From an uncultured Verrucomicrobia subdivision 3 bacterium (lineage in GTDB: Bacteria > Verrucomicrobiota > Verrucomicrobiia > Limisphaerales > UBA11358): a stretch of 64,000 nucleotides of DNA. Both the position numbers and the translations under genes were made by a program. Shown here piece after piece: positions 9,616 through 54,031 of this stretch. The number at the start of each line of letters is the position of its first letter. The stretch's first letter is position 1. The notes under the pieces were generated by a model. It had not been told where the DNA came from. It ran no database searches and was given only the letters and a program-made list of their open reading frames with translations. The stretch spans positions 34,368 to 98,367 of the forward strand of contig CAISYZ010000070.1 of assembly GCA_903889895.1 (NCBI GenBank), in the 5' to 3' direction.

Positions 9616-9688
9616 GCTGATTTCTTATCTTAATAAGGCAGATTAAAAATTCCCATCCGGCCGTGCAATGCCAAATTTCCGGACGCAT

Positions 9689-11506: not shown

Positions 11507-11627
11507 CGTCTGATTTTTGCAAAAGCCGCGCAAAACAAAAGAATTTGTTTTCGCAGCCGGCGTTAAAATCTTGTTTTGGCGCGGGAAAGCCGCTTGAATT
11601 GCGCCGGCCCAATCACATGGATTCACA

Positions 11628-12452: not shown

Positions 12453-12463
12453 GCCGCCGAGTT

Positions 12464-13405
12464 TCAACGCGCGACTGGCCTTAATCCCCAACCTTTCGGA
12501 CATCCCTGCGAATACCATTTGTAGAGGTGAAAATATTTCCGCAGCCGGCCTGTGAACGCCGGCAACAAAAACAGGGTCGGCACCGACAGTGCGAAATACC
12601 AAACGACGCGCAAAAAAAGCCGGTGGCGGTTTTTGCGGATTTTCGCGTCATACGATTTTTCCGGCTCGGTCTTGCGCCAGTAATAATGCTGGCTTTCGTA
12701 AAACTCCACAGCGGCGCGGAGGTGGATTGATTTGCTGCTGCCGCCGCCGTGATGAAGAACGCGCACGCGCGGCGTCCAGCGCAGGCACGCGCCGGCCTGG
12801 GCGGCGCGATGGCAAAAATCAAATTCTTCACCGTAGAAAAAGAAGCCTTCATCCATGCCGTCTAGCTTGTGCCACGTTGCACGGCGAATCACCATGAAGG
12901 CGCCGATGATCCGCGACACCGGCCGGAGTCCATCCGGTTCATTTGGGTCGGGCGCGGGACGGGACGGAAAATTAGCCGAGGTTTGGAGGGAGCCGTCGGC
13001 ATTAAGCAACTGGCCGCCAAACACGTCAATTTTTGGATGGCGGCGGAGCAAATCATCCAGCACTGGCAATGTGTCTGCCAGCAGTTCCGCATCAGAGTTC
13101 AACAACACCAGCCATTCGTTGCGGGCCACGCGCGCGCCCGCATTATTGGCGGCGGCAAAACCGCGATTGTCCGCCAACGCTAGGACGTTCAAGTTTGGAA
13201 ATTCCTTTTGCAACACCGCCGCGCTGCCGTCCGGTGAATGATTGTCCACCAAAATAATTTCATGGGGAAATTTCCCGGCATGGCGGTTGATCGAAAGCAC
13301 CGCCGCGCGGGTCAAAGCCAGCGTATTGTAGGAGACGATGATGAAGGAAAAACCCGGACTCCCCGCTGCCGGGCTATCCATTGCGGGGCCGTTATCTCTG
13401 GACAT
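12464..13405 (-). CDS. Glycosyltransferase family 2
   Basis: FSFIIVSYNTLALTRAAVLSI...IILVDNHSPDGSAAVL, with a later DAELL and a GEEFDF-type block. Confidence 0.8.
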   Translation of the reverse strand: MSRDNGPAMDSPAAGSPGFSFIIVSYNTLALTRAAVLSINRHAGKFPHEIILVDNHSPDGSAAVLQKEFPNLNVLALADNRGFAAANNAGARVARNEWLVLLNSDAELLADTLPVLDDLLRRHPKIDVFGGQLLNADGSLQTSANFPSRPAPDPNEPDGLRPVSRIIGAFMVIRRATWHKLDGMDEGFFFYGEEFDFCHRAAQAGACLRWTPRVRVLHHGGGSSKSIHLRAAVEFYESQHYYWRKTEPEKSYDAKIRKNRHRLFLRVVWYFALSVPTLFLLPAFTGRLRKYFHLYKWYSQGCPKGWGLRPVAR

Positions 13406-13459
13406 AATTCAGTTGAAAATTATCATCTGCCAACCTGAAAGGCAATCACCCGCGAACCC

Positions 13460-14254
13460 ATGAATGCAACCCCGACGCTGCCGATTTCCGTCTGCCTGAT
13501 TGCCGGCAACGAGGCCGCCCGCATCCGCCGTCCGCTGGCAAGTGTGGCCGGCTGGGCGGCGGAAATCGTCGTGCTGCTTAACGACGACGTGGCCGATGGC
13601 ACCGATCGGATTGCCGCCGAATTTGGCGCGAAGGTTTTTCGCGAGCCGTGGAAAGGTTTCGGCCCGCAGAAACAATCGCTCGCGGAAAAATGCACGCAGC
13701 CGTGGCTATTGAATCTCGACGCCGACGAAGTGGTCTCGCCGGAACTGCGCGCGGAAATCACCTGCTTGTTGGCCGACGAAAAGCGGTTGCACGCCCACGC
13801 CGCCTACGATTTTCCGCGCTGCACCTTTTGCTGCGGCCGCTGGATCCGGCACGGTGCCTGGTATCCTGACCGGCAACTTCGCTTGTGGCAACGCGGCCAG
13901 GCGCAATGGTCCGCCGCGCCGGTCCATGAAAAATTACAAGTCACAGGAACCATCGGCCGGTTGCGCGGCGAGCTGCAGCATTACACCATGGACGACCTGA
14001 ACCACCACGTCCGCAAATTAATTGAATACACCGATATTTTTGCGCGGCAGCACGCCGGGCGCAAAATCGGCGCGTGGGAGTTGGCCGTCCGTCCGGGCTG
14101 GCGTTTTGTGCGGAGCTATATTTTGCGGCGCGGCTTTCTGGACGGCTGGCAGGGCTACGCCGTGGCCTGGCTCGCCGCACAGGAGGCATTTTTGCGCTAC
14201 GCCAAAATCCGCGAGGCGCAGATGTCTGCCGCCAAAAAAAATTTCCTGACGTGA
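13460..14254 (+). CDS. Glycosyltransferase family 2 (LPS core type, WaaE/KdtX-like)
   Basis: ISVCLIAGNEAARIRRPLASV...VVLLNDDVADGTDRIA...LNLDADE. Its stop overlaps the start of the GT9 gene at 14252-14256. Confidence 0.75.
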   Translation: MNATPTLPISVCLIAGNEAARIRRPLASVAGWAAEIVVLLNDDVADGTDRIAAEFGAKVFREPWKGFGPQKQSLAEKCTQPWLLNLDADEVVSPELRAEITCLLADEKRLHAHAAYDFPRCTFCCGRWIRHGAWYPDRQLRLWQRGQAQWSAAPVHEKLQVTGTIGRLRGELQHYTMDDLNHHVRKLIEYTDIFARQHAGRKIGAWELAVRPGWRFVRSYILRRGFLDGWQGYAVAWLAAQEAFLRYAKIREAQMSAAKKNFLT

Positions 14255-15249
14255 TGACCGCGCCGCAAAACATCCTGCTCATCCGCTTGAAATCCATCGG
14301 CGACGTGGTGTTCACGCTGCCCGCCGTCAATGTCGTCCGCGATAATTTTCCGGCAGCAAAAATCAGTTTTCTCACCTCATTGGAAAATGCCCCGCTGGTG
14401 GCTGGTTTTCGTGGGCTGGACGAAATCATCCCGCTGGACCGTGCGCAATTGCGCCAGCGCAATCCTTTCAAGAGCGTTCCTCAGTTTTTCAGTCTGCTGC
14501 ATCGACTACAAAACGGACCCTTCGATTTGGTGGTAGATTTTCAAGGCTACGGCGAGACTGCCTGGCTGACGCGGCTCACCGGCGCGCACCAGCGCTGGGG
14601 CAGTATTTACCGGCCGGGCAGCCGGTGGGCTTACACGCTGGGCGTCCAGCGCGATGACAGGTTGCACCACGCGGAACGCAGTTTGGCAGTTCTTGCCGCC
14701 GGCGGTTTAAAAATCGGCGCGGTGCGTAATGATTTTTTTCTGCCTGAGGCTTCGCTCACCGAGGCCCGCGCCTGGCTGGCAGCCAACCGGCTTGACGCCG
14801 CCAAACCGCTGATTTATTTCCAGCCGTTCACCAGCACGCCGCACAAGAACTGGCCGTTTGAAAATTATCTTTCGCTCGCCCGGCACTGGCACGCGCGCGG
14901 TGTCCAGATAATAATGGGTGGCGGTCCGGCGGATCGGCCGTTTCTGGAACAAGCCCGGCAGCTTGGCTGCGTCATTCCCGAACGTCTGCCGCGCCTGACG
15001 GATGCCGGCTTGATGAAGCTGTCAACCTTGGTTATCGGCGGCGACACAGGATTTCTGCATCTGGCTGTCGCTTTGGGCAAGCGCGTAATCATGCTGGTGA
15101 ATCCGCTGGTTTCGAGCAACGCCGGCCCGTTCGGACATCCCGAATGGACCGTCGCGCCACCGCTGAATCAGCCCATTGCAAGTATTCCGCTGGAAAAAAT
15201 GATTGATACCGTCGGCGCGGCGCTGGCGGAAACCGGCTCCGGAAAATAA
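14254..15249 (+). CDS. Glycosyltransferase family 9 (heptosyltransferase-like)
   Basis: The internal start MTAPQNILLIRLKSIGDVVFTLPAV is the classic GT9 N-terminus. The C-terminal half contains GGDTGFLHLAVALG. Confidence 0.8.
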   Translation: MTAPQNILLIRLKSIGDVVFTLPAVNVVRDNFPAAKISFLTSLENAPLVAGFRGLDEIIPLDRAQLRQRNPFKSVPQFFSLLHRLQNGPFDLVVDFQGYGETAWLTRLTGAHQRWGSIYRPGSRWAYTLGVQRDDRLHHAERSLAVLAAGGLKIGAVRNDFFLPEASLTEARAWLAANRLDAAKPLIYFQPFTSTPHKNWPFENYLSLARHWHARGVQIIMGGGPADRPFLEQARQLGCVIPERLPRLTDAGLMKLSTLVIGGDTGFLHLAVALGKRVIMLVNPLVSSNAGPFGHPEWTVAPPLNQPIASIPLEKMIDTVGAALAETGSGK

Positions 15250-15250
15250 A

Positions 15251-15850
15251 ATGAAAAGTGCCATCGTTGAAGTGGAAGAAATCGTGCGGTTGCAGTCCGA
15301 TTGGACTCAACAGTGGCACGAAGCCCCGACGCCTGCCCAGACCGGCGAACCCTGGGTCGCCATTGAGAACAATCACCGGATGAATTTCGATTTGTGGCAC
15401 GCCGAGGATGCCGCGCGGCGCGACGACCTTGGCCCCGCCAGCGTGCGTGATGCCAAGCGCACCATTGACCGCTGCAACCAGGCGCGCAACGACGCCATCG
15501 AAAAATTTGATGTCTGGCTACTGGGCCAGTTCCTGCCGTTGCCAGTTGACGCGCCGCTTCATTCCGAGACACCCGGCATGATAGTGGACCGGCTGTCCAT
15601 CATGGCGCTGAAAATTTACCACATGCGCATCGAGGCGGCGCGCGAAACGGCAGACGGCGCGCAACGCGAGAAGTGCGCGCAAAAGTGCGCACTGCTGGAG
15701 GAGCAGCATGGCGATTTAAAAAACTGCCTGAAGGAGCTGCTTGCGGAACTGGCGGCGGGCACGCGGCGTTTCAAGCTGTATCGCCAGTTCAAGATGTATA
15801 ACGACGCGGCGCTCAACCCACAGCTTTACCAGCAATCCGCCAAGCGGTGA
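15251..15850 (+). CDS. DUF4254-like protein of unknown function
   Basis: ATG lies 1 nt after the GT9 stop. Blocks NFDLWHAEDAARR, NQARNDAIEKFD and ETPGMIVDRLSIMALKIYH match my recollection of DUF4254, a family often found beside heptosyltransferases. Confidence 0.55.
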   Translation: MKSAIVEVEEIVRLQSDWTQQWHEAPTPAQTGEPWVAIENNHRMNFDLWHAEDAARRDDLGPASVRDAKRTIDRCNQARNDAIEKFDVWLLGQFLPLPVDAPLHSETPGMIVDRLSIMALKIYHMRIEAARETADGAQREKCAQKCALLEEQHGDLKNCLKELLAELAAGTRRFKLYRQFKMYNDAALNPQLYQQSAKR

Positions 15851-15871
15851 AACGGTGAAAAATTTCACGAA

Positions 15872-17017
15872 TTGAAAATTGCCCTGCTCATCCGGCGATA
15901 CCTGACCACCGGCGGCGCCGAACGCTATGCCGTCGAGGTCGCGCGGCGGCTGGCGCGGCAGCACGAAGTTCACGTTTTCGCGCACGAGTTCGAAGGCGAA
16001 GCCGCCGGCAACATTTTTTTCCATCGCGTGCCGCGCCCGTTCCGCAAGCCGGCGTTCGTCAGCCAGTGGTGGTTCGCGTGGTGGACAGCGCGCCACGTCC
16101 GCGGCTTCGACGTCGTCCACACCCACGAACGCGCGCTTTGCTTCGACGTGATGCACGTCCACTCCGGCACGTTCGTCGGCGGGTTGTTCGGTGCGACGCC
16201 CGAGCAGCGGAAAAATCCGTTCCGCGTCTGGCTCAAAATCCTCACCGAACCACGCGTGCCGGCCTACTGGCTGCTAGAAAAAAAACATTACCGTCCGCAG
16301 CCGAGCCGCCGCTGGATCGCTGTTTCCCAAATGATTCAGCGCGAGGTGCAACAGTTTTATCCGATTTCCAACGACCGTTTTTCCGTGGCGCACCCCGGCA
16401 CCGATTTGCCGACAAACAATCTTGCCACCGCGCGGAAAATTTGGCGGGAAAAGTTGTCCGTGGCCGACGACGAAACGCTATTGCTATTTGTCGGCTCGGA
16501 ATTCCGGCGCAAAGGCCTCGACGCGCTCGTCGCGGCGCTGGCGCGCTTGAAAGATAAACCGGTGAAGCTGGTCGTGGTCGGGGGTGGCGATGCGGAACCT
16601 TACCGGCAACAAGCTGCCGCGTTGCAAGTTGGCGAAAAAATCCGCTGGGCCGGCTTGGTGAAAAATACTCCCGATTATTACGCCGCTGCGGACATTTTTG
16701 TTTTGCCCACGCTGTCCGACGCCGGACCGATGTCGCCGCTCGAAGCCATGGCGCACGGCTGTCCGGCGATTTTCAGTTGCGCCACCTACGCCGGCATGGC
16801 GGAGATGATAACCGACGGCGAAGCCATTTTGTTGAACGACCCGAAAGATGCGGTGGAAATTGCGGGAGCGGTGGAAAAATTGATGAATCCCGCCACGCGC
16901 GAAGAATTCATCCGCAAAGGCCGCGCGCTGGCGGAAAAACTTTCGTGGGACCGCACGGCGGCGCTGGTCGAGGCCGCGCTGGAAAAATCGGCGCGCGAAC
17001 GCGGGCTTATTCCTTGA
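15872..17017 (+). CDS. Glycosyltransferase family 4 (GT-B, WaaG-like)
   Basis: TTG start giving MKIALLIRRYLTTGGAERY. C-terminal half has FVGSEFRRKGLD...LPTLSDAGPMSPLEAMAHGCP, an E-x7-E-type block. Confidence 0.8.
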   Translation: MKIALLIRRYLTTGGAERYAVEVARRLARQHEVHVFAHEFEGEAAGNIFFHRVPRPFRKPAFVSQWWFAWWTARHVRGFDVVHTHERALCFDVMHVHSGTFVGGLFGATPEQRKNPFRVWLKILTEPRVPAYWLLEKKHYRPQPSRRWIAVSQMIQREVQQFYPISNDRFSVAHPGTDLPTNNLATARKIWREKLSVADDETLLLFVGSEFRRKGLDALVAALARLKDKPVKLVVVGGGDAEPYRQQAAALQVGEKIRWAGLVKNTPDYYAAADIFVLPTLSDAGPMSPLEAMAHGCPAIFSCATYAGMAEMITDGEAILLNDPKDAVEIAGAVEKLMNPATREEFIRKGRALAEKLSWDRTAALVEAALEKSARERGLIP

Positions 17018-17948
17018 GCCGGTTGCGGAGGCTTCTTTCTTTCAGCCGGACGAACGGCGCGGTCAGGCGATGTTCCAGCCAGCACCACGCGTAAGCCGGC
17101 AGCGAAATTTTTGGCTTGGCCTGCGCAATCAAAGGCGCGGCACGCTCGCCGTATTTTTTCCGCAGGTAATAAATTTGCTTGAACCACATCCGCGCCGTGG
17201 CATGCGCGGTGAGCCACGGCTTTGTGCGATAATCCGTGAGCAGTAGCATCTGCTCCTCGCGCGCCGCGCCGGAACGCGCGTTAGCCGCCGAGGCCTGCTG
17301 CGAATGCACGCGGAAACCGAACAGCGGCTCGGCGATGTAAGCGAAGCGGCCCTGTTCGAGCAGGTGGAACCAGAATTCCATGTCCACAATTTGCCGGTAG
17401 CGCGGATCAAAACCGCGCGCGGCCTGACGGCGGCGGAACATCACCAACGTCGGTTCGCCGAGAATATTTTTATTTTCCTCGAGGCATTTTACGATGACAT
17501 CCTTGCCGTCAAGCGTTTGGGTTTTTGGAAAATAATTCCGCACGGCGAGTGCCTGCGATTTCGAGTTGATGAGTTCCGAGGCCGCGCCGACGAGCGAAAC
17601 CGAGGCGTCGCGCTCCAGCGGCTCGAGCATTTTGGCGAACGCGGACGGATGCAGAATTCGGTCGTCCTGGTGGACGAACTTGATGAATTCACTGCGCGCG
17701 GCACGCATGACGGCGTTGTGGTTGCCGGTGAGGCCAAGGTTTTTTTCGTTCTGCCACCAGCGGATGCGGGAATCTTTCTGCGCATAGCTTTTTATAATTT
17801 CCAAGGAACCGTCGGTCGAGCCGTCGTCGGCAATCAAAATCTCAAAGTCGCGGAAATCCTGCAACAGGATCGAATCGAGGCATTCCGGCAGATAACGCGC
17901 GCTGTTGTAAACCGGAATGACGACGCTGATTTTTGGCGTTTCGCTCAT
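17007..17948 (-). CDS. Glycosyltransferase family 2
   Basis: MSETPKISVVIPVYNSARYLPECLDSILLQDFRDFEILIADDGSTDGS. ATGA overlap with the upstream GT2 gene at 17945-17948. Its 3' end overlaps the convergent GT4 gene by 11 nt. Confidence 0.85.
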   Translation of the reverse strand: MSETPKISVVIPVYNSARYLPECLDSILLQDFRDFEILIADDGSTDGSLEIIKSYAQKDSRIRWWQNEKNLGLTGNHNAVMRAARSEFIKFVHQDDRILHPSAFAKMLEPLERDASVSLVGAASELINSKSQALAVRNYFPKTQTLDGKDVIVKCLEENKNILGEPTLVMFRRRQAARGFDPRYRQIVDMEFWFHLLEQGRFAYIAEPLFGFRVHSQQASAANARSGAAREEQMLLLTDYRTKPWLTAHATARMWFKQIYYLRKKYGERAAPLIAQAKPKISLPAYAWCWLEHRLTAPFVRLKERSLRNRLKE

Positions 17949-18904
17949 GGGTGCAGCCAGCAGTAAAGTGCCGCCAGCCGCTTGCAAAGGCTGTGGCTAA
18001 ATTTTTGCCCCAGCACGCGGTGGATGAAGCGCGCGGGCCGTTTTTCAAATTGAAATTGCATGCCCCGGCCTTCGGCACAATACACCGCCAGTTCCTGCCG
18101 GGGAATGCCAAACAGCACGGGCAAGTCGGCGTGCCGCGCCACGAGCGGAAGAAATTTCCTGGTGAAATGAGCCGCGAGCCGCCCCTGATACGGTGTTAAT
18201 TTCTGGAGCATGGACTGGCCATGCACGCGATAATCGCTCAAGACCTTGGAAATGAATATACCGGAGTGTCCGGCCTGCGCCAGCTTAAGCCATAGATCAT
18301 AATCTTCCCAGCCTTGCGGCAGAAAACTCCCGTATTCGGTTGAGTAGCCGCCGTGATGCAGCACCGTTTCCCGGCGAATCATCGCCATCGCGTCGATGCA
18401 CGGCCCGCCCAGCAGTCGGTTGGTTTCCCATCCGCAATCAGACAATGTGCCCAAGCTGGCGCGGGTTGCATTATCGAAGCGGTTGATGATGCCGTAGGCC
18501 ATCGCGTGATCAGATTTTACGAGGGCCAGGTAATGTTCGCGCAAACAGTCCGGGCGGATTTCGTTGTCCGCATCCAGGATGAAAACCAGCGACGCACGGG
18601 CCAAGACCAGGCCGAGGTTGCGCGTGTCCGCCAGCCCGCTGTTGGCCTGTTTGGTGACGAGCCGGATGGGCATAGGGCTTGCCGCCATGTATTGCTCAAC
18701 CACCTTCACCGAATCATCCGTCGAGCGGTCATCCACCACCACCACTTCAAAGCCGCCCGGTAGCCCGTGGGTTTTCGAGACACTGACGCTGTCAAGACAG
18801 CTGCGGATGTAGGCCGAATAATTGTAAAGCGAAACGACCACGCTGACCGTTGGTTGCACGCAATCCTGCCCGGCCTGATTGGCAACCAACTTCCAGCTAT
18901 TCAT
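17945..18904 (-). CDS. Glycosyltransferase family 2
   Basis: VSVVVSLYNYSAYIRSCLDSV...VVVVDDRSTDDSVKVV...ILDADNE. Confidence 0.8.
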   Translation of the reverse strand: MNSWKLVANQAGQDCVQPTVSVVVSLYNYSAYIRSCLDSVSVSKTHGLPGGFEVVVVDDRSTDDSVKVVEQYMAASPMPIRLVTKQANSGLADTRNLGLVLARASLVFILDADNEIRPDCLREHYLALVKSDHAMAYGIINRFDNATRASLGTLSDCGWETNRLLGGPCIDAMAMIRRETVLHHGGYSTEYGSFLPQGWEDYDLWLKLAQAGHSGIFISKVLSDYRVHGQSMLQKLTPYQGRLAAHFTRKFLPLVARHADLPVLFGIPRQELAVYCAEGRGMQFQFEKRPARFIHRVLGQKFSHSLCKRLAALYCWLHP

Positions 18905-19110
18905 AAAAAATCCGCTCTTTCATTTTACTTCAAATGCATCCGTGCCGATTTCTTGGGAAGACGTTCACTGAACAAGCCGTCGACCCCTCGACCAAAGTAG
19001 CCGGCCAGCTTGCTTGCATGCGCAGGAAACTAATTGGCGTCCGCCTCCTTGAAAAGGAGAATATATTTTCTTGTCATCGTTAAAATAATGTTTTGAAATC
19101 AGCAGAAGGC

Positions 19111-19848
19111 ATGGCTTTGTTTTCAGATCAATTGCGGCGGAAGATTTACCGCCTGAGGCTGAAGTGTTTCAAACCGGGAAAATTCGCCAGACTCCAAAAC
19201 TCCCGTTTTCCACTGGAAGACCTTCGATGCATCTTTGTGCACATACCGAAATGTGCGGGGATTTCGGTGAGCCGAAGCCTGTTCGGCGAAAACTTTGAGT
19301 TCACCCACCTGAATCTGAAGCAATACCTGGACATTCTGGGGCCGGCGGAATTCCAAACATATTACAAATTCACGGTGGTGAGAAATCCCTATGACCGGCT
19401 GGTGTCGGCCTATTTCTTCCTGAAAAAAGGTGGAATCAACGAAGAAGATAAAAACTGGGCGGAGAAAAACCTTTCAGCGTATGACAGTTTCGACAGTTTT
19501 GTGAGAGAATGGGTCAACCAAAAAAATATCCAGACTGAGATTCATTTTTGGCCACAATGCGATTTTATCTGCCTCGAAAAGAACCAGCCGGGAGTAGATT
19601 TTATCGGCTATTACGAAAACCTTGAGGCTGATTTCCGACATGTTTGCCGGAAATTGAACAGCCATTCAACCCTGCTCGCGGTGAATCGAAATGCAACCCG
19701 TGGTAAGGATTACCGGGAATACTACACAGACGAAACCAAGGCGATTGTGGCGGATGTTTATGCCAATGACATCCGGATTTTGGGATATGATTTTGATAAT
19801 TCAAGCCTGCCAAACCAACTCAGGCTGCGCGACGGGAAAGCTGCCTAA
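19111..19848 (+). CDS. Sulfotransferase family 2-like protein (PAPS-dependent)
   Basis: 5'-PSB loop IFVHIPKCAGISVS (PKCAG at nt 19246-19260) and 3'-PB block VVRNPYDRLVSAYFF. ATG at 19111 is preceded by gaagg; the track ORF starts at TTG 19093. The gene is visibly AT-richer than its flanks. Confidence 0.7.
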   Translation: MALFSDQLRRKIYRLRLKCFKPGKFARLQNSRFPLEDLRCIFVHIPKCAGISVSRSLFGENFEFTHLNLKQYLDILGPAEFQTYYKFTVVRNPYDRLVSAYFFLKKGGINEEDKNWAEKNLSAYDSFDSFVREWVNQKNIQTEIHFWPQCDFICLEKNQPGVDFIGYYENLEADFRHVCRKLNSHSTLLAVNRNATRGKDYREYYTDETKAIVADVYANDIRILGYDFDNSSLPNQLRLRDGKAA

Positions 19849-27538: not shown

Positions 27539-28495
27539 TTACAGCCCGAACTGGTTTGCCATGATGCCGATGACGCTCAACGGCCCAGTGTCCTCCAAGC
27601 CGTCGGCCGCCTTGTCCAGCTTTTGCAGCGAGAGCTTGGCGCTCTTGTAAAAATCCTGTTCGTTCACCAGTTTGCCGATGGTGCCGTCGCCCTGGTTCAC
27701 CTTCAGCAGAATTGAATTCAGGTTGGTCATCGAACTGGTGGCGGAATTATAAAGTGCCTCGTCCGTCAGCAGCTTGCCGATGGTGCCCTTGCCGGCACGC
27801 GCGTCTTCAACCGTCAGCCTGATGGAGCCAATGGTATCCTGAAGGTTGCTCACGGTGTCCAGCGCCGACGCATAAAGTGTGTCGTCATAGATCAGCTTGC
27901 CGACCGTGCCCTTGCCGCTGCGGATTTCGCCGGAAATATTTTCGATGTTGTCGAGCGTGTTCTTGATGCTTTCCTTTTTGGAGGTGATGACGTCATCCAG
28001 CGCACCGAACATGTGCTTGATCTCGTCGCCGGCAAAATTTTTCGTGATGTTCTGGATACCGCCAGCGGCGTTGTCCAGCTTGGCCATGATGGCGTTCAAA
28101 TCCGTCTGCTCGACACTCGCCAACTCGGTGCCGTCCACGGCCAGCGTGTTGTCCGACGGCGCGCCAAAATCCAGCGCCACAAAATTCTGCCCCATCAGGC
28201 CGGTGAACCGGATGCTGGCGATGCTGCTGGTTTTCACGACCGCCGTCTGGCGCAGTTTTAGCGTCACGCGGACGCGGTTCGTGGTCAGTTCGATACTCTC
28301 GACGCGGCCGATTTCGACGCCGGCCATTTTCACGCGGTCGCCCGGCTTCAAATCCTGCACGGTCTGGAACTGCGCGGAAACCCGGTAACCGTGGCCAAAC
28401 AAATCCACGCTGCCGAGCGTCTCGACGAGCGCCCACGCGGCGATAAGCGTGATGGCGACGAAGAGGCCAAGTTTGGTTTCGAGGGAATTTTTCAT
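27539..28495 (-). CDS. mlaD: MlaD/MCE-family protein with an extended C-terminal repeat region
   Basis: N-terminal TM segment followed by an MCE domain (VKMAGVEIGRVESIEL). Three C-terminal repeats: GKGTVGKLIYDDTLY, GKGTIGKLLTDEALY and GDGTIGKLVNEQDFY. Confidence 0.8.
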   Translation of the reverse strand: MKNSLETKLGLFVAITLIAAWALVETLGSVDLFGHGYRVSAQFQTVQDLKPGDRVKMAGVEIGRVESIELTTNRVRVTLKLRQTAVVKTSSIASIRFTGLMGQNFVALDFGAPSDNTLAVDGTELASVEQTDLNAIMAKLDNAAGGIQNITKNFAGDEIKHMFGALDDVITSKKESIKNTLDNIENISGEIRSGKGTVGKLIYDDTLYASALDTVSNLQDTIGSIRLTVEDARAGKGTIGKLLTDEALYNSATSSMTNLNSILLKVNQGDGTIGKLVNEQDFYKSAKLSLQKLDKAADGLEDTGPLSVIGIMANQFGL

Positions 28496-28507
28496 AGGCG
28501 GAACGGT

Positions 28508-29269
28508 TTATTTTTCTCGTTTAAAATCGGCGTGCAGAAAACTCTGCACCAGCGGGTCGTTGAAATTTTTCACCTCGTCCGGCGTCCCGATGGTCAGGAT
28601 GCGGCCCTCGGCAATCACCGCAATGCGGTCAGCCACGCCGAACGCGAGGTCGCGGTCGTGCGACACCACCAGCGAGGTCACGCCGATGCGGCGCTGTAAA
28701 TCGAGAATCTCGTTGCCGATGACGACGGATGAAACCGGATCCAGCTCGCTCGTCGGTTCATCGTAAAGAATCAACTGTGGCTCGATGACCAGCGCGCGCG
28801 CAATGGCAACGCGCTTTTTCATGCCGCCGGAAAGTTCGGACGGCATCTTGTCCATGACGTTTTTCAGGCCGACGTCCGTCAGCTTTTCGCTGACAATCTT
28901 TTCGATTTCCGCCGGTGATTTCAACCGGTGTTCGGCGAGATACAGACCGACGTTTTCACCGACGGTCAGTGAATTCAGCAGCGCGCCGGATTGAAAAACC
29001 AGCGCCATGCGGTATTTCGCGGCGATTTCCGGCGTGGTGATGGGCTCGCCGTTGATGAGGATTTCGCCCGCATCGGGCTCTTCGAGACCGATGAGATGCT
29101 TGAGCAGGACACTCTTGCCGCTGCCGCTCGGCCCCATGATGACAAAAATTTCGCCGGGCTGGACGGTAAAATCAATACCCTTGAGCACTTCCTGCCCGTC
29201 AAAGCTCTTGCACAGGCCGCGCACCGCGAGGCCAACGCCGCCGGAAATTTTTTCGTTCGCGCCGTTCAT
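28508..29269 (-). CDS. mlaF: ABC transporter ATP-binding protein, MlaF-like
   Basis: Walker A GPSGSGKS, signature LSGGMKKR and Walker B ILYDEPTSELD. Start MNGANEK (cat at 29267-29269) forms an ATGA overlap with the mlaE stop. Confidence 0.85.
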   Translation of the reverse strand: MNGANEKISGGVGLAVRGLCKSFDGQEVLKGIDFTVQPGEIFVIMGPSGSGKSVLLKHLIGLEEPDAGEILINGEPITTPEIAAKYRMALVFQSGALLNSLTVGENVGLYLAEHRLKSPAEIEKIVSEKLTDVGLKNVMDKMPSELSGGMKKRVAIARALVIEPQLILYDEPTSELDPVSSVVIGNEILDLQRRIGVTSLVVSHDRDLAFGVADRIAVIAEGRILTIGTPDEVKNFNDPLVQSFLHADFKREK

Positions 29270-30003
29270 TTCAACAGAAAGCGGGTGAGGATGTAGTCGA
29301 AAATCACGATGAGCACGATGGAGTTCACCACGGCCTTCGTAACCGAGCGCCCGATGCCGCGCGGGCCGCCGATGGTCGTCAGCCCCTGGTGGCACGAAAC
29401 CACGCCGACGATGACCGCGAAGCAAAAGCTCTTGAACACGCCGTTAGCCACGTCCGACAGCTCGACGATGTCCTTCAAGTCGGCGAAGAAAACCTTGAAG
29501 GGAATGTCCATGAGGTGATTGTAATTCGCCACCATCGCACCGCCGAACCAGCCGGTGAGAATGGAAAAAACCACCAGCATCGGCAGCGCCACCGAAATCG
29601 CCAGCACGCGGGGCAGCACAAGGTAATGAACCGGGTTGATGTTCATCGTCCGCAGCGCATCAATTTCCTGATACACGCGCATCGAGCCGATTTCCGCCGC
29701 CATCGCCGAGCCGATGCGGCCGGCGATGAGAATCGCCATCATCACCGGCGCGAGTTCCTTGGCGATGCCGAGGCCGACCACGCCGCCGACGGCATTGGTG
29801 AAGCTGCGCTCCACCAGTGGTGGGCCAAAGTTCAGCGCGATGACGCCACCGATGAAGAATGACAGCATGCAGACCATCAGCAAACTGGCGTTGCCGATTT
29901 CAAAAAACTGTTCTTTCACCTTCTGCCGATGACGCCACGCGAGCGGCAACGCCAGCAGCGTGCGCCAGAACAACAGCATGACTTGTCCGACATTTTCAAA
30001 CAT
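29266..30003 (-). CDS. mlaE: ABC transporter permease, MlaE-like
   Basis: 245-aa polytopic protein with typical MlaE blocks GRIGSAMAAEIGSMRVYQEIDAL and GGPRGIGRSVT. Confidence 0.85.
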   Translation of the reverse strand: MFENVGQVMLLFWRTLLALPLAWRHRQKVKEQFFEIGNASLLMVCMLSFFIGGVIALNFGPPLVERSFTNAVGGVVGLGIAKELAPVMMAILIAGRIGSAMAAEIGSMRVYQEIDALRTMNINPVHYLVLPRVLAISVALPMLVVFSILTGWFGGAMVANYNHLMDIPFKVFFADLKDIVELSDVANGVFKSFCFAVIVGVVSCHQGLTTIGGPRGIGRSVTKAVVNSIVLIVIFDYILTRFLLK

Positions 30004-30012
30004 GGTGCAAAA

Positions 30013-31494
30013 TTATTGGGCGGCCGTCTTTTCGGCGGCCCGGTGGAAATAGAACCACTGCGTCCGGCTGCTTTCCCCATCCAATTGATACTGGAAAAGG
30101 CCGAACAGGAGCGAGACTTTTTTGTGCGCCGGCGCAGTCTCGCGACGATATAAATTCCACAACAGCGAGCGGCTGGAAGCGCCGGTCAGCGGATTGTCCG
30201 CCGCGCGCCAGAGCGACCACAGCGGCGACCAGTTGCGTTCGACGCCGCGATTGTCCGGGGTGAACGGCTCCGCCAACGCGAGCACCTGCAGGCGTTGTTC
30301 GCCGTGCTGGCCAAGATGCCATTCAAAGAACGGCCACATTTCCAGCCGAACTTTTCCCAGTCCGGTCTCGGTGTTTTTTTCCTCGAGTTTGGAATATAAA
30401 TAAAACAGCACCTGCGTCCGCCGCTGGTCCAAAATTCCAGAGTGAAACCAGTGGGACTGCCAGAGTGGCCACAGATACGAATCGGCTTCCTGCGTGGCAT
30501 TGTGTGAGCGGCTGAATAGCGGGAAGACGCGCGTGGTGGTCTTGCCCTCGCCGCGCGCGATGATAATAAACGGCCACGGCATCTGCCATTCGCGATAGTT
30601 TTTTTCGCGATTGTCCAGCCAGGTGAAAAACGGCCAGAGCACGGTGGTGACCTCCAGTTGCGGCGAGCGCGTGGTGGCAAAAAACGGAATCGAGGCGCGA
30701 AATTTCTCCTCGTTGGTCGTGCCCAGGCCGGTGGTCTGCCGCAGATACAGCGGCCAGACGTAAAAGGATTTTTCATGGCCGCCGGTGGTCTCGACGTCAC
30801 CGAAGCCGTTGGTGTGCGTGGTCACGCCCTGCTGTTCGTGCCCGACAAACGGCCAGACCTGCCAGCCGCGCAGATGGTCACCACGGCTGGTCGCGCCAAA
30901 CGGATACAGATAGTTTTCCGTGATGACATCATTTTTGCGCGTCTCGCTGTAAAACGGGAACATCACGAAAAAGATTTCGTCGTGAAACAGGCGGTTTTTG
31001 AGCCGGCCATAAAACGGCATAAGCGCGGTGTAATTTAAATTGGTGTCCGTGGCTCGTTGCTGAAAATACAGCGGGTAGATGGTAACGCGGCTCACCTCCG
31101 TGCCGTCCGCCTGCTGGCCGCCAGCGGTGCTGATGAGCTGGAACAATTGCCAGCGCCGTTCCTCGCCGTAGCGGATGCGCGACAGCAGCGGATACAGGAA
31201 ATCATCCTCGTGCGATTCCACCTCTGGATTTTGGTCGCAGGAAAAGAACGGCGGCAACGCCCAGGTTTTTTCCGAACCGCTTTGCTGCGAATAATAAAAC
31301 GGCCCGCCGGCTTCGGTGCGCCAGCCAGCTTCGAGCGTCAGGGAAAAATGATCAAACGCAAAACCGGCGGAATCCCATTTCTCCTCAGCGGCGGAAACGG
31401 CAAAAGCCAGACCGATGACAAAAGCCATGACCAAAAGGCACCGGTTTTGGCCGGGTTCACCTTTTTTCGGTATCGTTATTGGCTTTCGAATCAT
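30013..31494 (-). CDS. Exported aromatic-Pro repeat protein of unknown function
   Basis: Start MIRKPITIPKK followed by the hydrophobic segment CLLVMAFVIGLAFAVSA. At least 14 copies of an (aromatic/aliphatic)-P-(F/L)-(aromatic) motif: PPFFS, LYPLLS, IYPLYF, LMPFYG, MFPFYS, LYPFGA, VWPFVG, VWPLYL, SIPFFA, LWPFFT, PWPFII, VFPLFS, LWPLWQ and MWPFFE. Sits between the MMPL gene and mlaE. Confidence 0.6.
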   Translation of the reverse strand: MIRKPITIPKKGEPGQNRCLLVMAFVIGLAFAVSAAEEKWDSAGFAFDHFSLTLEAGWRTEAGGPFYYSQQSGSEKTWALPPFFSCDQNPEVESHEDDFLYPLLSRIRYGEERRWQLFQLISTAGGQQADGTEVSRVTIYPLYFQQRATDTNLNYTALMPFYGRLKNRLFHDEIFFVMFPFYSETRKNDVITENYLYPFGATSRGDHLRGWQVWPFVGHEQQGVTTHTNGFGDVETTGGHEKSFYVWPLYLRQTTGLGTTNEEKFRASIPFFATTRSPQLEVTTVLWPFFTWLDNREKNYREWQMPWPFIIIARGEGKTTTRVFPLFSRSHNATQEADSYLWPLWQSHWFHSGILDQRRTQVLFYLYSKLEEKNTETGLGKVRLEMWPFFEWHLGQHGEQRLQVLALAEPFTPDNRGVERNWSPLWSLWRAADNPLTGASSRSLLWNLYRRETAPAHKKVSLLFGLFQYQLDGESSRTQWFYFHRAAEKTAAQ

Positions 31495-31579
31495 TGCGCT
31501 TTCGGCGTTTTTCACGCCGAGTTTAACATTGACATTGACTTTGTTGGTCTTTGGTTTATTGTTCCAAACAATTGAGGTT

Positions 31580-34336
31580 TTACCTCGGTTCCTCCTGACC
31601 CGGTGCTGGCATTGATTTGTTGGCACTGGGTTTTTCTTTGATCAGCGGAAACCGCCGGCCTACCAAATTCAGCAGCGCCGGCAAAAATGTCAGGCCCGCA
31701 ATCATGCACGTCGCGATGCCCGTGGCCATCATACAGCCAAGGCTATAGATGCCGCGATGCTGCGCAAGCATCAGGCTGCCGAATCCCGCGATGGCCGTCA
31801 ATCCCGACACCAGCACCGCCTTACCCGTGCTGCGCGCCAGAATGCTCGCGGTGCGCTCCTCGGCGTAGCGGTTCAAAATATGGATGCCGTTGGTCACGCC
31901 GATGCCGATGACCAGCGGCAGCGTCATGATGTTCGCCAGGTTCACCGGAATGCCCGCCCAGCCCATGATGCCCGCCAGCCACAGCGTCCCGATGGCGACC
32001 GGAATCAGCGATAAAATCACCGCGACCAAGCTGCGGAAATGGAACAGCACCATTAGCGCGATGGCCGTCAGCGAATACCACGCCGCCTGGATGTAGCTGT
32101 TCTTCAACAGCGTCTCGTATTCCAGAAGCTGCACCGGCGTGCCGGTGACGTTCGGATCCACCGTCCGCAAATCCGCCACGAAACGCTCCTGCGGCGCGCG
32201 TTGCCAGACGTCTTCCTTGGGATAAACCTGGATGAGAAATTTCCCGTTCACGCCGACAAACCGGTGGCGCAGGGCGGGCGGCAAATCGTCCACGCCCAGC
32301 GGCGCCTGGCTGTCCTGCCGCTGCAACAATTCAAACGTGTCGCGCAAATCGCCGAGCAGCATCTGCTGGAACTGCCCCAGCTTCAACGCGTGATCCGCGC
32401 GGACCGTCGCGTCGCCGGCCAGCGCGTCCTTGCGCAGGCTCGTGATGGCTTCGCTCAAATCATTCAATTGCGCGACCAGCACCGGATCGTTGGTGCCGAC
32501 GGCGCGCTCGGCCAGGCCGAGATAGCAGGAAGTGTAGAACAGCGTGCCGCTCAACTGCTCCACGTCCACCGGCTGCGCGTCCGGCGGACTGAATTTCAGC
32601 GCGGCCACCTCGCCTTTAACTTCCTCGATGAGCCGGAGTTTTGCCGGCGACGCCGGCTCCAGAAAATCCCGGTAGAACGGCGGCTGGGTTTCCGCCACCG
32701 TGGGCAGCTGCTCGATTTTTTCCTGCAACGCCACCGCGTTCGTGAGCGAATCGGCGACGACCGCGCCGTAGAGCAGCGACTTTTCCGCGGAGTTGAGCAG
32801 CTTCTGCTCGAAGACCACCGACGACAAACTCGGGCTTTGCATCTTGATGAGGTTGTAATCGAAATAAACCTTCCGCGCCTCCCACGCCGCCGCCGCGCAG
32901 AGCGCCAGCGTGATGCTTAGCACCAGCACCGGCCGTTGCAGCCAGAAGTTTTCCAGCCGCGCCCGCCGGTCGTCCTCGCGGATGGCGTGGTCGAGCACAT
33001 TTTGCCGGCCGCGCAGCAGCAGCACCGGCAGCATCGTCATCATGGGAATGAAACACACCAGCAGGCCGCCGCCGCAGATGATGCCCATTTCCTTGATGCC
33101 CTGAAAATTCGTGAAATACATCGACAGAAACGCGCCGGCCGTCGTCAGTGCGCCGATGAAAATGCCCTGGCCGGTGAACACCATCGCCTTGGTGATGGCT
33201 TCCTGCTCGGTTTTGCCGTGGTGCAATTCCTCCTCGTAGCGCGTGATGAGGTGCACGCCGAAATCAATCGCCAGCCCGATGAGCATCGGCACGAAGGTGA
33301 TGGTCAAAATGTTCAGGTGCCCGATGGTCACCGTCGTGAACGCCAGCGTGTAGCCGAGGCCGACGACGAGGCAGATGGTCGCCTTCACCGGCCGGCCGGT
33401 TTCGTGATAGCCGTAGATGAAAATCAGCGCGCACACCAGCATCGCCACCACGCTGGCCACCGTTGTGTCCCGTTGCGACTGCATCATCTCGTCGTAATCC
33501 AGCACCGGCTCGCCGGTGATGCCCACGTTCACGCCCGGCACCTCGGCCTTGGTCTGCCCCACCAGTTCGCGCAACCGGTCCACCGCGTCGCCGGTCTGGT
33601 CATCGGTCGGCGCGTGCGTGGTGACCACGAAAATTTTCCCGTGCGCAAACGTCAGGTAGCTGTCCAGCACCGCGTCGTCGCTGCCGCCGAGGAGCGTGAC
33701 CACGTTGGGCGACGGCGGCAGGCCGCTGCGATGCAAGGCGTCGCCGGCCTGCGACACGATGCGCGTCAGCGCCGGCAACGATTTCGCCAGCGACCGGTTT
33801 TCCGCGTTGTCCACCTGCGACGCCGAGCGGAAGGCGAGGTTGATCTGGTCAAAGAGCGAGACGAGATTCGTCGTCTGCGCGAACTGCGTGATGAACGGCC
33901 GCGCCGCGCGCAACGTATCGCGCATTTCCACGAGGTTCGTCTCGGTGGCGTAATGCAGCGCCTTGTTGCCCATCATGCCGAGGCTCTGCTGGTAAAACAC
34001 ATCGCAGAAGAGATTTGTCTGCGCCTGCATTTTCGCGGCGATGCGCTCGACGAACTGCCGGTTTTTTTCGAGGTCGTCGCTTTCCACCACCACCACCAAA
34101 TCGTCCGGCTGGGGAAATTCCTTTTCCAGCGCGAGATAGTTCTGGTGGTATTTCTGGTTCGGGCCGACCAGATTGTCGCGGTTCATGTCCGCCTTCAGGA
34201 AGAAGACGGTGTAGAGCACGCAGAGGATGAAGAGCCCCACCTGCGGCCAGAAGAACCAGTGCGGATAACGGCACACCGCCGCCGCCAGCCGCCCCAGCAG
34301 CCGACCCATGACACTGTCTGGACGGAGCGCCTTCAC
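31580..34336 (-). CDS. MMPL/RND-superfamily transporter, HpnN-like
   Basis: 918 aa with two 6-TM bundles, each followed by a large soluble loop. N-terminus reads RLAAAVCRYPHWFFWPQVGLFILCVLY. ATGA overlap with the upstream YbjQ-like gene. Confidence 0.75.
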   Translation of the reverse strand: MKALRPDSVMGRLLGRLAAAVCRYPHWFFWPQVGLFILCVLYTVFFLKADMNRDNLVGPNQKYHQNYLALEKEFPQPDDLVVVVESDDLEKNRQFVERIAAKMQAQTNLFCDVFYQQSLGMMGNKALHYATETNLVEMRDTLRAARPFITQFAQTTNLVSLFDQINLAFRSASQVDNAENRSLAKSLPALTRIVSQAGDALHRSGLPPSPNVVTLLGGSDDAVLDSYLTFAHGKIFVVTTHAPTDDQTGDAVDRLRELVGQTKAEVPGVNVGITGEPVLDYDEMMQSQRDTTVASVVAMLVCALIFIYGYHETGRPVKATICLVVGLGYTLAFTTVTIGHLNILTITFVPMLIGLAIDFGVHLITRYEEELHHGKTEQEAITKAMVFTGQGIFIGALTTAGAFLSMYFTNFQGIKEMGIICGGGLLVCFIPMMTMLPVLLLRGRQNVLDHAIREDDRRARLENFWLQRPVLVLSITLALCAAAAWEARKVYFDYNLIKMQSPSLSSVVFEQKLLNSAEKSLLYGAVVADSLTNAVALQEKIEQLPTVAETQPPFYRDFLEPASPAKLRLIEEVKGEVAALKFSPPDAQPVDVEQLSGTLFYTSCYLGLAERAVGTNDPVLVAQLNDLSEAITSLRKDALAGDATVRADHALKLGQFQQMLLGDLRDTFELLQRQDSQAPLGVDDLPPALRHRFVGVNGKFLIQVYPKEDVWQRAPQERFVADLRTVDPNVTGTPVQLLEYETLLKNSYIQAAWYSLTAIALMVLFHFRSLVAVILSLIPVAIGTLWLAGIMGWAGIPVNLANIMTLPLVIGIGVTNGIHILNRYAEERTASILARSTGKAVLVSGLTAIAGFGSLMLAQHRGIYSLGCMMATGIATCMIAGLTFLPALLNLVGRRFPLIKEKPSANKSMPAPGQEEPR

Positions 34337-34671
34337 GCGGTCTTTTCCACAAACACCGCCGTGCCGTAGCAGAGCACCTCGGTGATGCCCGGCGCGATTT
34401 CCGTGGCGTCATAACGCACGCCGATGACGGCGTTGGCGCCGAGCTGGCCGGCGTGGGTGAGCATGAGGTTAAACGCATCCTCGCGGGCGCGCTCGCAGAG
34501 GTTCGTGTATATGGAAATGTTGCCGCCGAAAATGGCCTGGATGCTCGCGCCGACGTTGCCGATGACCGACCGCGAACGCACGATGATGCCGCGCACCACG
34601 CCATAGGACTTGGTGATGTGAAAACCCGGCAGGTCAAACGTCGTCGTCGTCAGCGGATGGGTCATACTCAT
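34333..34671 (-). CDS. YbjQ/UPF0145 family protein
   Basis: The internal start MSMTHPLTTTTFDLPGFHITKSYGVVRGIIVRSRS...AVIGVRYDATEI gives 112 aa typical of UPF0145. The upstream 120 codons of the track ORF are Arg/Pro-rich and not protein-like. Confidence 0.75.
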   Translation of the reverse strand: MSMTHPLTTTTFDLPGFHITKSYGVVRGIIVRSRSVIGNVGASIQAIFGGNISIYTNLCERAREDAFNLMLTHAGQLGANAVIGVRYDATEIAPGITEVLCYGTAVFVEKTA

Positions 34672-35047
34672 AACCCATTGATTGAACACGACCCGGCGCA
34701 TCCGCAAAAGCGAAATCTTGCCGGACGCCGGTTCGGCGGCACCAAAAGAAATATTAATCCGCTGGTTTACTTTAAATTTAAACTGCGGCGGACCCATAGA
34801 CGGGCGCAAAAATTCTGCTATAAATCGCCGTTGCGGCCTGGGGACCGGCCGTGTCTTACCCGGAGTCCTGCCCAGAAACCATGACCCTGTCATCGCGGCA
34901 AGCAAGCAGCCAGCGGCCCGCCGGCCCAAAGTCCGGACCGCCCGCCCCGGCGCTTTGTCCCCCGCACCCGGCGGCTTCCGCCGCCCGACGGCGGGAGTTT
35001 TCCTGGCTCCCGGGCATTCCCGCCGCGTCACGGATACCGTTTTCCAC

Positions 35048-35236
35048 GGCTTGGGGGAAGTCCCCCATGACGCGGCGGACTCCCGCCATCAGCTGGGGGA
35101 AGCCCGCCACGGCGCGGGGGACTTCCCCGAGCAGCCGGGGGACGTCCGCCATGAGCCGGGGGACTTCCCCCATGGCGCGGAAAACCCCCGCGACCTCGCG
35201 GAAATGTCCCGCCGGACGACGGGGGAAGGCGTTGGC
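35048..35236. repeat. Nine tandem 21-bp repeats with a G4-N4-C4 core
   Basis: Units such as gggggaagtcccc, gggggacttcccc, gggggacgtccgcc and ggggaagcccgcc. The base following each G-run falls at 35058, 35079, 35100, 35121, 35142, 35163, 35184, (35205) and 35226, an exact 21-nt register. Confidence 0.8.
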
Positions 35237-35281
35237 CGGCGAAAAGGCCCGATTTCTCCTTAAAAACCCCCTTTTTGACCT

Positions 35282-36052
35282 ATGAGAATCGCTACCTGGG
35301 ATTCCGGTGACCCGGAAATGTATTTCGACAATCCCAACCTCCGCTGGGGTTCGCCCTCCTACCTCCTGGAGCCCGGCGATCCCGGCTACGTGCCACCTTT
35401 CCCGACGGTTCAAACAACAAGCATAAAAAAACACATGAAAAAGAAACACGACATAGTCCCAAAACCCATTGCCAAATATCTCGATTGGCATGACAACCTC
35501 AAAAACGGCGTCACCGCCACCACGCCCGGCGCCACGGCGGCGGATGTGACCATGCTGACCACCGATAACGGCGCGCTCCACACCAAACACACGGCCGCCA
35601 ACAACGCCGACATTGTGGCCAAAACCGCCCACACGGATTTTGCCACCGCGCAAGCCAACAGCATACGCAACGCCCGCGCCCTGGCCCAACGCATCAAAAA
35701 AAGCACCGGCTGCACTCCCGCCCTGATCGCCTCCCTGCAACTGGACGGTATCGAGGACACCACCGACATGACCCAGGAGAAACCCACCGTCACCGCCACC
35801 GCCAAAGCCAACGGCGTCATCGAAGTGGGCTTCAACAAAATCCAAGCCGAAGGCGTGCACATCTACGAAGACCGCGCCGGCACCGGCGTCTTCAACTATC
35901 TGGGCAGCGAGGTCCACTCGCCCTACGTGGACAACCGCCCGCTGCTGACGCCCGGCAAACCCGAGACCCGCCGTTACAAAGCCGTGTTCTTCATCGGCAA
36001 AGCCGAGATTGGTTTGGAAAGCGACATCGTGGAAGCCACCGCCCATCCCTAA
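35282..36052 (+). CDS. Hypothetical protein with a helical middle region and an Ig/FN3-like C-terminal domain
   Basis: 256 aa. N-terminus contains MYFDNPNLRWGSPSYLLEPGDPGY. An Ala/Thr-rich helical region follows. The beta-rich C-terminus reads PTVTATAKANGVIEVGFNKIQAEGVHIYEDR...RRYKAVFFIGKAEIG. A strong terminator follows the gene. No family name recognised. Confidence 0.6.
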   Translation: MRIATWDSGDPEMYFDNPNLRWGSPSYLLEPGDPGYVPPFPTVQTTSIKKHMKKKHDIVPKPIAKYLDWHDNLKNGVTATTPGATAADVTMLTTDNGALHTKHTAANNADIVAKTAHTDFATAQANSIRNARALAQRIKKSTGCTPALIASLQLDGIEDTTDMTQEKPTVTATAKANGVIEVGFNKIQAEGVHIYEDRAGTGVFNYLGSEVHSPYVDNRPLLTPGKPETRRYKAVFFIGKAEIGLESDIVEATAHP

Positions 36053-36069
36053 AACCGGCGGGCTAACGG

Positions 36070-36105
36070 CCCGGCGGGAAAAGGTTTTCCCGCCGGGTTT
36101 TTTTT
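36070..36105 (+). terminator. Rho-independent terminator
   Basis: Stem cccggcgggaaaa / ttttcccgccggg followed by eight T residues. Confidence 0.9.
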
Positions 36106-54030: not shown

Positions 54031-54031
54031 A

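Follow-up and report, generated by a model that had tools for sequence, protein, structure and literature searches.

A Rep-mlaEFD cassette beside an HpnN-like exporter in Limisphaerales: a minimal Mla system with a candidate new accessory protein

We analysed a stretch of 64,000 nt (hereafter the window) from an uncultured bacterium (assembly GCA_903889895.1, contig CAISYZ010000070.1, positions 34,368 to 98,367), whose relatives place it in the Limisphaerales (Verrucomicrobia subdivision 3). Its minus strand carries a six-gene cluster in which an exported repeat protein, here called Rep, lies between an MMPL-type exporter and the genes mlaE, mlaF and mlaD of an ATP-binding cassette (ABC) transporter. 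A preliminary description of this DNA had read all six genes as one composite machine. We find instead that the cluster very probably consists of two separable modules. Rep and mlaEFD form a four-gene cassette held together across at least two phyla, while MMPL is a separable, lineage-specific neighbour, present in one large verrucomicrobial clade only, and YbjQ is probably an unrelated neighbour. The explanation that best accounts for the locus as a whole, to which we give a probability of roughly 0.55, is a lipid pump module made of Rep and MlaEFD next to a separate, co-regulated MMPL module. The features of the cluster are as follows.

27539-28495, minus strand: long MlaD of 318 aa (PF02470, E = 4e-20)
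28508-29269, minus strand: ABC ATPase at the MlaF position (ABC_tran, E = 4.5e-35)
29266-30003, minus strand: MlaE permease (PF02405, E = 4.9e-70; TIGR00056, 217.8 vs a cutoff of 212.2)
30013-31494, minus strand: Rep, 493 aa, exported and predicted to be an all-beta hairpin-repeat protein (no family)
31468-31596, minus strand: conserved MMPL-Rep junction element of three islands (nucleotide conservation)
31580-34336, minus strand: HpnN-like MMPL/RND lipid exporter, 918 aa from GTG (PF03176, E = 1.2e-48)
34333-34671, minus strand: YbjQ/UPF0145 protein of 112 aa (PF01906, E = 3.2e-29, 102 bits vs a cutoff of 23)

The evidence for two modules comes from the gene order in relatives, for which three groups of loci were available: a close set of 80 species-level Limisphaerales genomes, 78 of which entered the adjacency counts; mid-range metagenome loci, found by a scan with a 5-sequence alignment; and a distant set of nine distinct loci, from Geotalea daltonii, Desulfuromonas versatilis and seven metagenomic lineages. 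The order YbjQ-MMPL-Rep-MlaE-MlaF-MlaD is nearly invariant in the Limisphaerales genomes (75-78 of 78), and the flanking MTHFR, porin and PilC genes are likewise conserved there, so these close genomes by themselves show little about linkage. Over all informative loci, mlaE was found directly downstream of Rep in 151 of 155 (75 of 78 genomes, all nine look-up loci and 67 of 68 metagenome loci), with a median gap of 13 nt and with start/stop overlaps in several phyla. Rep stands on the same strand as, and directly beside, mlaE-(mlaF)-mlaD in all nine distant loci, where start and stop codons frequently overlap, and the genes that flank Rep-mlaEFD are unrelated and differ from lineage to lineage. 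Counted over 160 loci, Rep adjoins mlaE-mlaF-mlaD on the same strand in about 97%, among them relatives of Rep from Geobacter and Desulfuromonas at 25-35% identity. The linkage is kept as well in loci L170-L173, of which L173 (5520-9443) has the permuted order mlaE-mlaF-mlaD-Rep and encodes a Rep that is a lipoprotein (signal …FLVGC).

MMPL lies directly upstream of Rep in 78 of 78 close genomes, in 43 of 54 mid-range metagenome loci and in none of the distant ones; neither MMPL nor YbjQ was found within 8-10 kb of Rep in any of the nine. Rep-mlaEFD also occurs without MMPL and YbjQ in about 10 of the 54 mid-range loci and in locus L088. In a tree of Rep, the loci that lack MMPL are basal, a position that fits a single ancestral juxtaposition of MMPL and Rep-mlaEFD that was vertically inherited thereafter. 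The gap between YbjQ and MMPL is bimodal, and its long class contains a yebC/TACO1 gene, which separates the two genes in approximately 33 of the 73 loci with both measured. As a separate observation, yebC/TACO1 was seen between ybjQ and MMPL at L089:4244-4978 and at 66 other loci, and it is not in the window. Since Rep-mlaEFD is kept across lineages while MMPL and YbjQ are not, we take Rep-mlaEFD to be the conserved unit. The preliminary description had asked whether the gene order is conserved in relatives, and the answer is divided: the Rep-Mla part is conserved, while the MMPL part is missing in the distant and basal loci. Its assignment of the repeat protein to the Mla system agrees with the linkage across loci. 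The translational link that it had seen between the two transporter classes is not supported, as MMPL and Rep are 41-226 nt apart in most loci (median, 128 nt), against the short median gap between Rep and mlaE. The single composite machine is not supported either, in view of the nine distant loci, about 10 of the mid-range loci and L088, all with Rep-mlaEFD and without its two neighbours, nor is the inclusion of YbjQ in such a machine, in view of the interposed yebC/TACO1 gene.

The coordinates and most junctions of the cluster in the window were confirmed. All six open reading frames (ORFs) were found on the minus strand where they had first been placed, and the family matches listed above support them. 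Their GC content at third codon positions (GC3) is 0.68-0.85 and each has conserved homologues in at least 80 genomes, which argues that they are not chance ORFs. By direct reading of the sequence, mlaE and mlaF share an ATGA overlap, and the gaps are 9 nt between Rep and mlaE, 12 nt between mlaF and mlaD, and 85 nt between MMPL and Rep, all as previously given. The overlap of ybjQ with MMPL also exists, but it reads GTGA rather than the ATGA first described, because the longest MMPL ORF opens with GTG; the first ATG in that ORF is 27 nt downstream, at 34309. A domain scan of the approximately 50 ORFs of at least 80 aa in the window returned no MlaA, MlaC or STAS (MlaB) domain, in agreement with the absence of MlaA, MlaB and MlaC noted earlier, and no shc or hpn gene of hopanoid synthesis. 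At the downstream end of the cluster, the stop codons of mlaD (minus strand) and of the convergent MTHFR gene (plus strand) abut at 27538/27539 with zero bases between them, which leaves no space for a terminator hairpin between these two genes.

The junction between MMPL and Rep is itself conserved at the nucleotide level. Island 1 (31596-31570) comprises the last MMPL codons and an invariant GAGG/CCTC hairpin round the stop codon; island 2 (31542-31522), about 30 nt past island 1, reads AAAGTCAATGTCAATGTTAAA, also written AAAGTCAATNTCAATGTTAAA; and island 3 (31480-31468), which follows after a 41-nt spacer, reads AATAACGATACCG, also written AATAACGATAACG. The spacer between islands 2 and 3 varies in sequence and is 40-42 nt long in 67 of 83 loci. 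We found the element at 92 loci, all of them with MMPL upstream, and at 0 of 31 loci without MMPL; its specificity is such that 92 of its 94 matches in 2.3 Mb fall at the MMPL-Rep junction. Island 3 overlaps the annotated N-terminus of Rep in the window, and we considered that it might encode a conserved N-terminal peptide, 'ITIT'. This was rejected, as the peptide is out of frame or separated by a stop in about half of the loci, from which it follows that the island is conserved as nucleic acid. The start of Rep at 31494 is uncertain, since conservation of the stretch that codes for 'PITIP' is at the nucleic-acid level and extends to relatives in which this stretch is not in frame. A structured RNA was not supported: RNAalifold returned only the invariant 4-bp hairpin, with no covariation, the mean z-score of the spacer was -0.5, and there was no Rfam match. 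The element could serve as an internal promoter, as an operator or as a leader to which a protein binds. Its conservation indicates that the junction itself is under selection, which modestly raises the chance of a functional co-ordination between MMPL and Rep-mlaEFD.

The Rep family and its predicted fold are what looks new at this locus. A profile search of 1.84 billion representatives with Rep returned 1,499 clusters (representatives taken at 50% identity), 419 of them at E <= 1e-30; full-length members extend down to 24-30% identity, and identity within the order is 58-86%. The Rep sequence has no match in Pfam, NCBIfam or the PDB (the PDB profile search gave noise), a Pfam scan of 59 family members gave stray hits only, and we found no paper on the family in the literature. 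A signal peptide at approximately residues 16-38 is followed by about 23 hairpins, each with an aromatic-Pro turn, and the prolines, which belong to (L/V)(W/Y/F)P(L/F)(F/Y) motifs, are spaced 17-20 residues apart except for a few longer intervals. In most of the family the signal peptide is of the cleavable type I, and a lipobox is present in only a minority of the homologues. Only P, G, W, Y and L residues are invariant in a set of 136 diverse members, which argues for a scaffold rather than an enzyme.

We modelled Rep with AlphaFold2. An alignment of 136 sequences gave a predicted local distance difference test score (pLDDT) of 93 and a predicted template modelling score (pTM) of 0.81; with 26 close sequences the pLDDT was 35. 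The model comprises 45 strands, on average 5.9 residues long, and tight two-residue turns that alternate with aromatic-proline turns of 3-5 residues. A single insertion of 24 residues, which contains two short helices, lies over ERNWSPLWSLW, the best-conserved motif. Given the sequence and the secondary-structure pattern, the aromatic-proline turns of the modelled sheet must all lie on one edge. Foldseek searches of the PDB and BFVD with this model found no neighbour with a query-normalised template modelling score (TMq) above 0.18, so no fold was assigned; the local likenesses were to MORN, OspA, the teneurin YD shell and propeller blades, which are hairpin-meander sheets. An integral outer-membrane barrel was rejected because the strands are short (mean of 5.9 residues vs about 9 or more expected) and both of their faces are polar to weakly hydrophobic, and Foldseek gave no beta-barrel match to Rep. 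Rep does not match a small PqiC-like lipoprotein, to judge by the lack of a PqiC/ABC_trans_aux Pfam match, the type-I signal peptide and the rarity of the lipobox. A mean-field direct coupling analysis of 429 Rep sequences, run for sheet closure, was dominated by gap and two-clade artefacts and was discarded.

The three partners of Rep in the cassette resemble the core of an Mla transporter. MlaF carries a generic ABC_tran domain and scores 172 bits against NF008809, whose cutoff is 441, so it is below equivalog level; its assignment rests on its position, which is conserved in at least 150 loci, and on the ATGA overlap with mlaE. MlaD scores 87.3 bits against the short-MlaD equivalog TIGR04430 and does not reach the cutoff of 135. 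Its N-terminus is a transmembrane helix, followed by an MCE domain and by a helical extension that contains three G(K/D)GT(V/I)GKL..D..(L/F)Y repeats; the C-terminal tail is conserved and hydrophobic, with only about 15 hydrophobic residues. Its closest solved relative is the mycobacterial Mce1B (8FED_B), to which residues 7-221 align, beyond the MCE domain. The Rep-linked MlaD proteins of all lineages share one architecture: a transmembrane helix, the MCE domain, a helical stretch, three to six G(E/K)GT(L/I)GKL..D..LY repeats and the tail KAT(D/E)GLED.GPLSVLG...LF. Full-length homologues of 27-52% identity adjoin Rep in other phyla, and many Rep-linked ones, including those of 52% identity, have a precomputed hit to PF28544 (Helical_needle). 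Both the Mce1B match and the architecture of the relatives support the extended MlaD C-terminus described earlier, which is homologous to MCE helical extensions.

A survey of Mla systems found that MlaEFD alone is the ancestral and commonest core, that MlaABC are essentially proteobacterial and that long forms make up 85% of MlaD proteins (Grasekamp et al. 2023, PMC10665443). The MlaD proteins of the Planctomycetes-Verrucomicrobia-Chlamydiae (PVC) group have no C-terminal barrel, the part with which the Veillonella MlaD reaches across to the outer membrane, and the authors speculated about 'as yet unidentified proteins' (PMC10665443). The absence of MlaA, MlaB and MlaC had been called unusual in the preliminary description, but by these data both that absence and a long MlaD are the norm. 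The window shows the minimal MlaEFD pattern: an mlaE-mlaF-mlaD cluster and a long MlaD with a helical extension, with no MlaABC in the window. Taken with the model of Rep, the locus can be described as an Mla/MCE ABC system of the minimal kind that comes with a new accessory protein, so far unnamed, whose predicted fold is unmatched.

One of the closest known systems is the minimal MlaEFD of V. parvula, which also has mlaE-mlaF-mlaD without MlaA, MlaB or MlaC, a long helical MlaD extension and a second lipid-transport gene next to it (tamB there, MMPL here). Its mlaEFD adjoins tamB, which belongs to a separate system of opposite function (PMC10665443), a precedent for two lipid machines at one locus without a single complex. 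The two differ in that the MlaD of V. parvula ends in its own outer-membrane beta-barrel, whereas here the cassette encodes a separate exported protein of 493 aa. With the MlaFEDB-MlaC-MlaA system of E. coli the locus shares a homologous MlaE, an ABC ATPase at the MlaF position and the MCE domain of MlaD. It differs in the lack of MlaB, MlaC and MlaA in the window, in an MlaD of 318 aa vs 183 aa, in MlaF and MlaD scores below the NCBIfam equivalog cutoffs, and in Rep, which has no counterpart there. In chloroplasts, TGD1/2/3 form an importer of the MlaE/MlaF/MlaD type that works with TGD4, a beta-rich protein of approximately 480 aa on the outer-membrane side. TGD4 is an integral, LptD-like barrel, whereas the polar strands of Rep, 5-7 residues long, speak against one. 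An MCE needle with a separate outer-membrane partner is found in Brucella MpcEFDA (PMC12436622), P. aeruginosa PA3213/PA3214 (PMC13631591) and E. coli PqiABC. Like the Rep cassette, these pair a periplasm-spanning helical needle with a separately encoded partner on the outer-membrane side, and Mpc is driven by MlaE/MlaF-like ABC parts; unlike Rep, their partner is a small PqiC-like lipoprotein, while Rep is large, is not a lipoprotein and has no detectable similarity to it.

The MMPL protein is related to hopanoid transporters, at a distance. It scores 556.6 bits against HpnN (TIGR03480), below the cutoff of 751.85, and 325.7 against NF052374, whose cutoff is 1100; it matches BstA with E = 3e-76 and, over its full length, the structure of B. 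multivorans HpnN (5KHN) with E = 1e-52, a match that shows homology only. YbjQ matches the PDB entries 2GTC and 1VR4. In Proteobacteria, HpnN has been proposed to be linked with HpnM, which is MlaC-like, and HpnS, which is MlaA-like (Lawrence et al. 2025, PMC12324291). There, too, an HpnN-like RND/MMPL gene stands beside Mla-related lipid-trafficking genes, in a parallel and not in the same arrangement, as its associates are homologues of MlaC and MlaA, whereas here they are the ABC core MlaEFD and Rep. The present locus differs from HpnN and BstA in its MMPL score, which is below the HpnN equivalog cutoffs, and in having no hopanoid biosynthesis gene in the window. We also looked for a general link to hopanoids, but of 171 loci only one has an adjacent shc. 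In that locus, L170 (13130-15025, GCA_965657355.1), the gene for squalene-hopene cyclase is on the same strand as Rep-mlaEFD and 1.1 kb downstream of it, and in Geotalea daltonii (L081) a gene of a carotenoid-synthesis family directly follows mlaD. These isolated cases hint at isoprenoid lipids.

Under the two-module explanation, Rep-mlaE-mlaF-mlaD encodes an Mla/MCE-type ABC transporter for lipids, of the minimal kind that has MlaEFD only. Hydrolysis of ATP by MlaF, acting through MlaE, would power a flux of lipids via the hexameric MlaD ring and its helical extension, in a direction that, by analogy, may be retrograde. Rep would be an exported, non-enzymatic scaffold of approximately 23 beta-hairpins with one edge of conserved aromatic-proline turns. 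It would dock on or cap the distal MlaD extension as the periplasmic, outer-membrane-proximal partner of the hexamer, and so give lipids a path to or from the outer membrane's inner leaflet. In this role it would stand in for MlaC and MlaA of Proteobacteria, for the C-terminal barrel of the Veillonella MlaD and for the PqiC-like lipoproteins of Pqi and Mpc, which makes it a candidate for the missing distal partner of a barrel-less long MlaD. The second module, ybjQ-(yebC)-MMPL, would contribute an independent HpnN-like RND exporter that uses the proton gradient to move a lipid outward, maybe a hopanoid or another isoprenoid. It would have been placed upstream of the first module once, in the ancestor of a large verrucomicrobial clade, and kept since. 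The conserved, putatively regulatory element and the kept adjacency suggest that the two systems are probably co-regulated and complementary rather than parts of one physical complex, and the MMPL and Mla fluxes could be opposing or complementary in envelope-lipid homeostasis. On balance, Rep is probably a physical component of the MlaFED system; its specific docking at the outer membrane is a tentative proposal. Bolder, and quite unlikely, is the idea that Rep is a new class and a new fold that serves both as the distal partner of barrel-less long MlaD proteins and, in Verrucomicrobia, as a hub shared by MlaFED and the HpnN-like exporter. The lipids of such a hub would possibly be hopanoids or other isoprenoids, the leads being the HpnN-like neighbour, the shc gene of L170 and the Geotalea carotenoid gene.

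Several observations weigh against the two-module explanation or against the place that it gives to Rep. In three Limisphaerales loci (L023, L036 and L055), ybjQ-MMPL-Rep is kept and no mlaEFD is present within 10 kb downstream; these are the sole cases in which Rep stays with MMPL instead of mla, and they suggest that Rep could also serve the MMPL exporter. The adjacency of MMPL and Rep persists down to approximately 45% Rep identity, and together with the junction element this would also fit a closer coupling than that of separate machines. A promoter and terminator scan gave a promoter count at shuffle level and no strong minus-strand terminator between the genes. The location proposed for Rep is that of a protein whose homologues seldom carry a lipobox and whose fold has no structural analogue. 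We infer all that is said here of the function of Rep, including its contact with MlaD. One rival is a single trans-envelope machine of all six proteins, with Rep bridging the periplasmic domain of MMPL and the MlaD ring. The packing of the six genes on the same strand, the order kept in all close genomes and in 43 of the 54 mid-range loci, the element at the junction and the three loci just mentioned are in its favour. We nevertheless consider it quite unlikely, given that Rep-mlaEFD stands without MMPL and YbjQ in every distant lineage and in basal verrucomicrobial lineages, that a housekeeping gene, yebC, splits ybjQ from MMPL, that MMPL and Rep are separated by a long spacer whose length varies, and that HpnN-type transporters function without Mla ABC parts (5KHN; PMC12324291).

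Two other roles for Rep were weighed. It might be a soluble, MlaC-like periplasmic carrier of lipids between MlaFED, possibly also MMPL, and the outer membrane, as the cleavable signal peptide of most members, the few lipoboxes and strands that lack the length and hydrophobicity to cross a membrane would allow. Its linkage to both transporters in Verrucomicrobia, and the MlaC-like shuttle HpnM that HpnN is proposed to use in Proteobacteria, point the same way. However, Rep, with approximately 450 residues, far exceeds the size of known lipid shuttles, its weakly hydrophobic strand faces offer no evident lipid pocket, and the long MlaD extension favours a bridge over a shuttle, so that we regard a carrier as unlikely. 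Rep might instead act in assembly, stability or regulation, or be an exported protein that has nothing to do with mlaEFD beyond a common transcript. In favour of this are the novel fold and the 4 of the 155 loci in which mlaE is not beside Rep. Against this, a linkage that survives across phyla, with changing flanks and in a permuted order, is the classic signature of a shared function, and conservation of the sequence within the order is strong; we consider this account quite unlikely. The reading that we retain is Rep-mlaEFD as one module, with MMPL as another, probably under common regulation.

Other features of the window were also recorded. Between ybjQ and the divergent ORF at 35282-36052 is a gap of 610 nt that holds a GC-rich tandem repeat (35044-35180) with a period of 21/42 nt and about six copies of 21 nt, whose consensus is GGGGGACTCCCGCCATGACGC. 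That ORF, on the plus strand, encodes 256 aa with no Pfam or NCBIfam match, and a strong hairpin of terminator type comes after it (36068-36099); the longer ORF that overlaps this ORF in antisense (34856-36046) is probably spurious. An envelope-glycan cluster at 5730-19848 comprises two AlgX-like SGNH proteins, an MBOAT protein, an MsbA-like ABC exporter, several GT2, GT4 and GT9 glycosyltransferases, a DUF4254 protein and a sulfotransferase, and indicates that the wider neighbourhood is envelope-related. The region at 53281-61655, of lower GC and GC3, is probably mobile or foreign; its genes encode an integrase of phage type (54885-56204), a ResIII helicase (56211-58979), a Bro-N protein (60789-61655) and also a DnaJ-Sel1 protein. 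The window has no tRNA gene.

How lipids pass across the periplasm is an open question in most bacteria, and how a barrel-less long MlaD reaches the outer membrane was left open by the survey of Mla systems (PMC10665443). Rep is a concrete and testable candidate for an answer, and its family includes cultivable, genetically tractable species of Geobacter and Geotalea. In the Verrucomicrobia, the pairing of the cassette with an HpnN-like exporter, together with the conserved junction element, would offer a handle on the co-ordination of opposing lipid fluxes.

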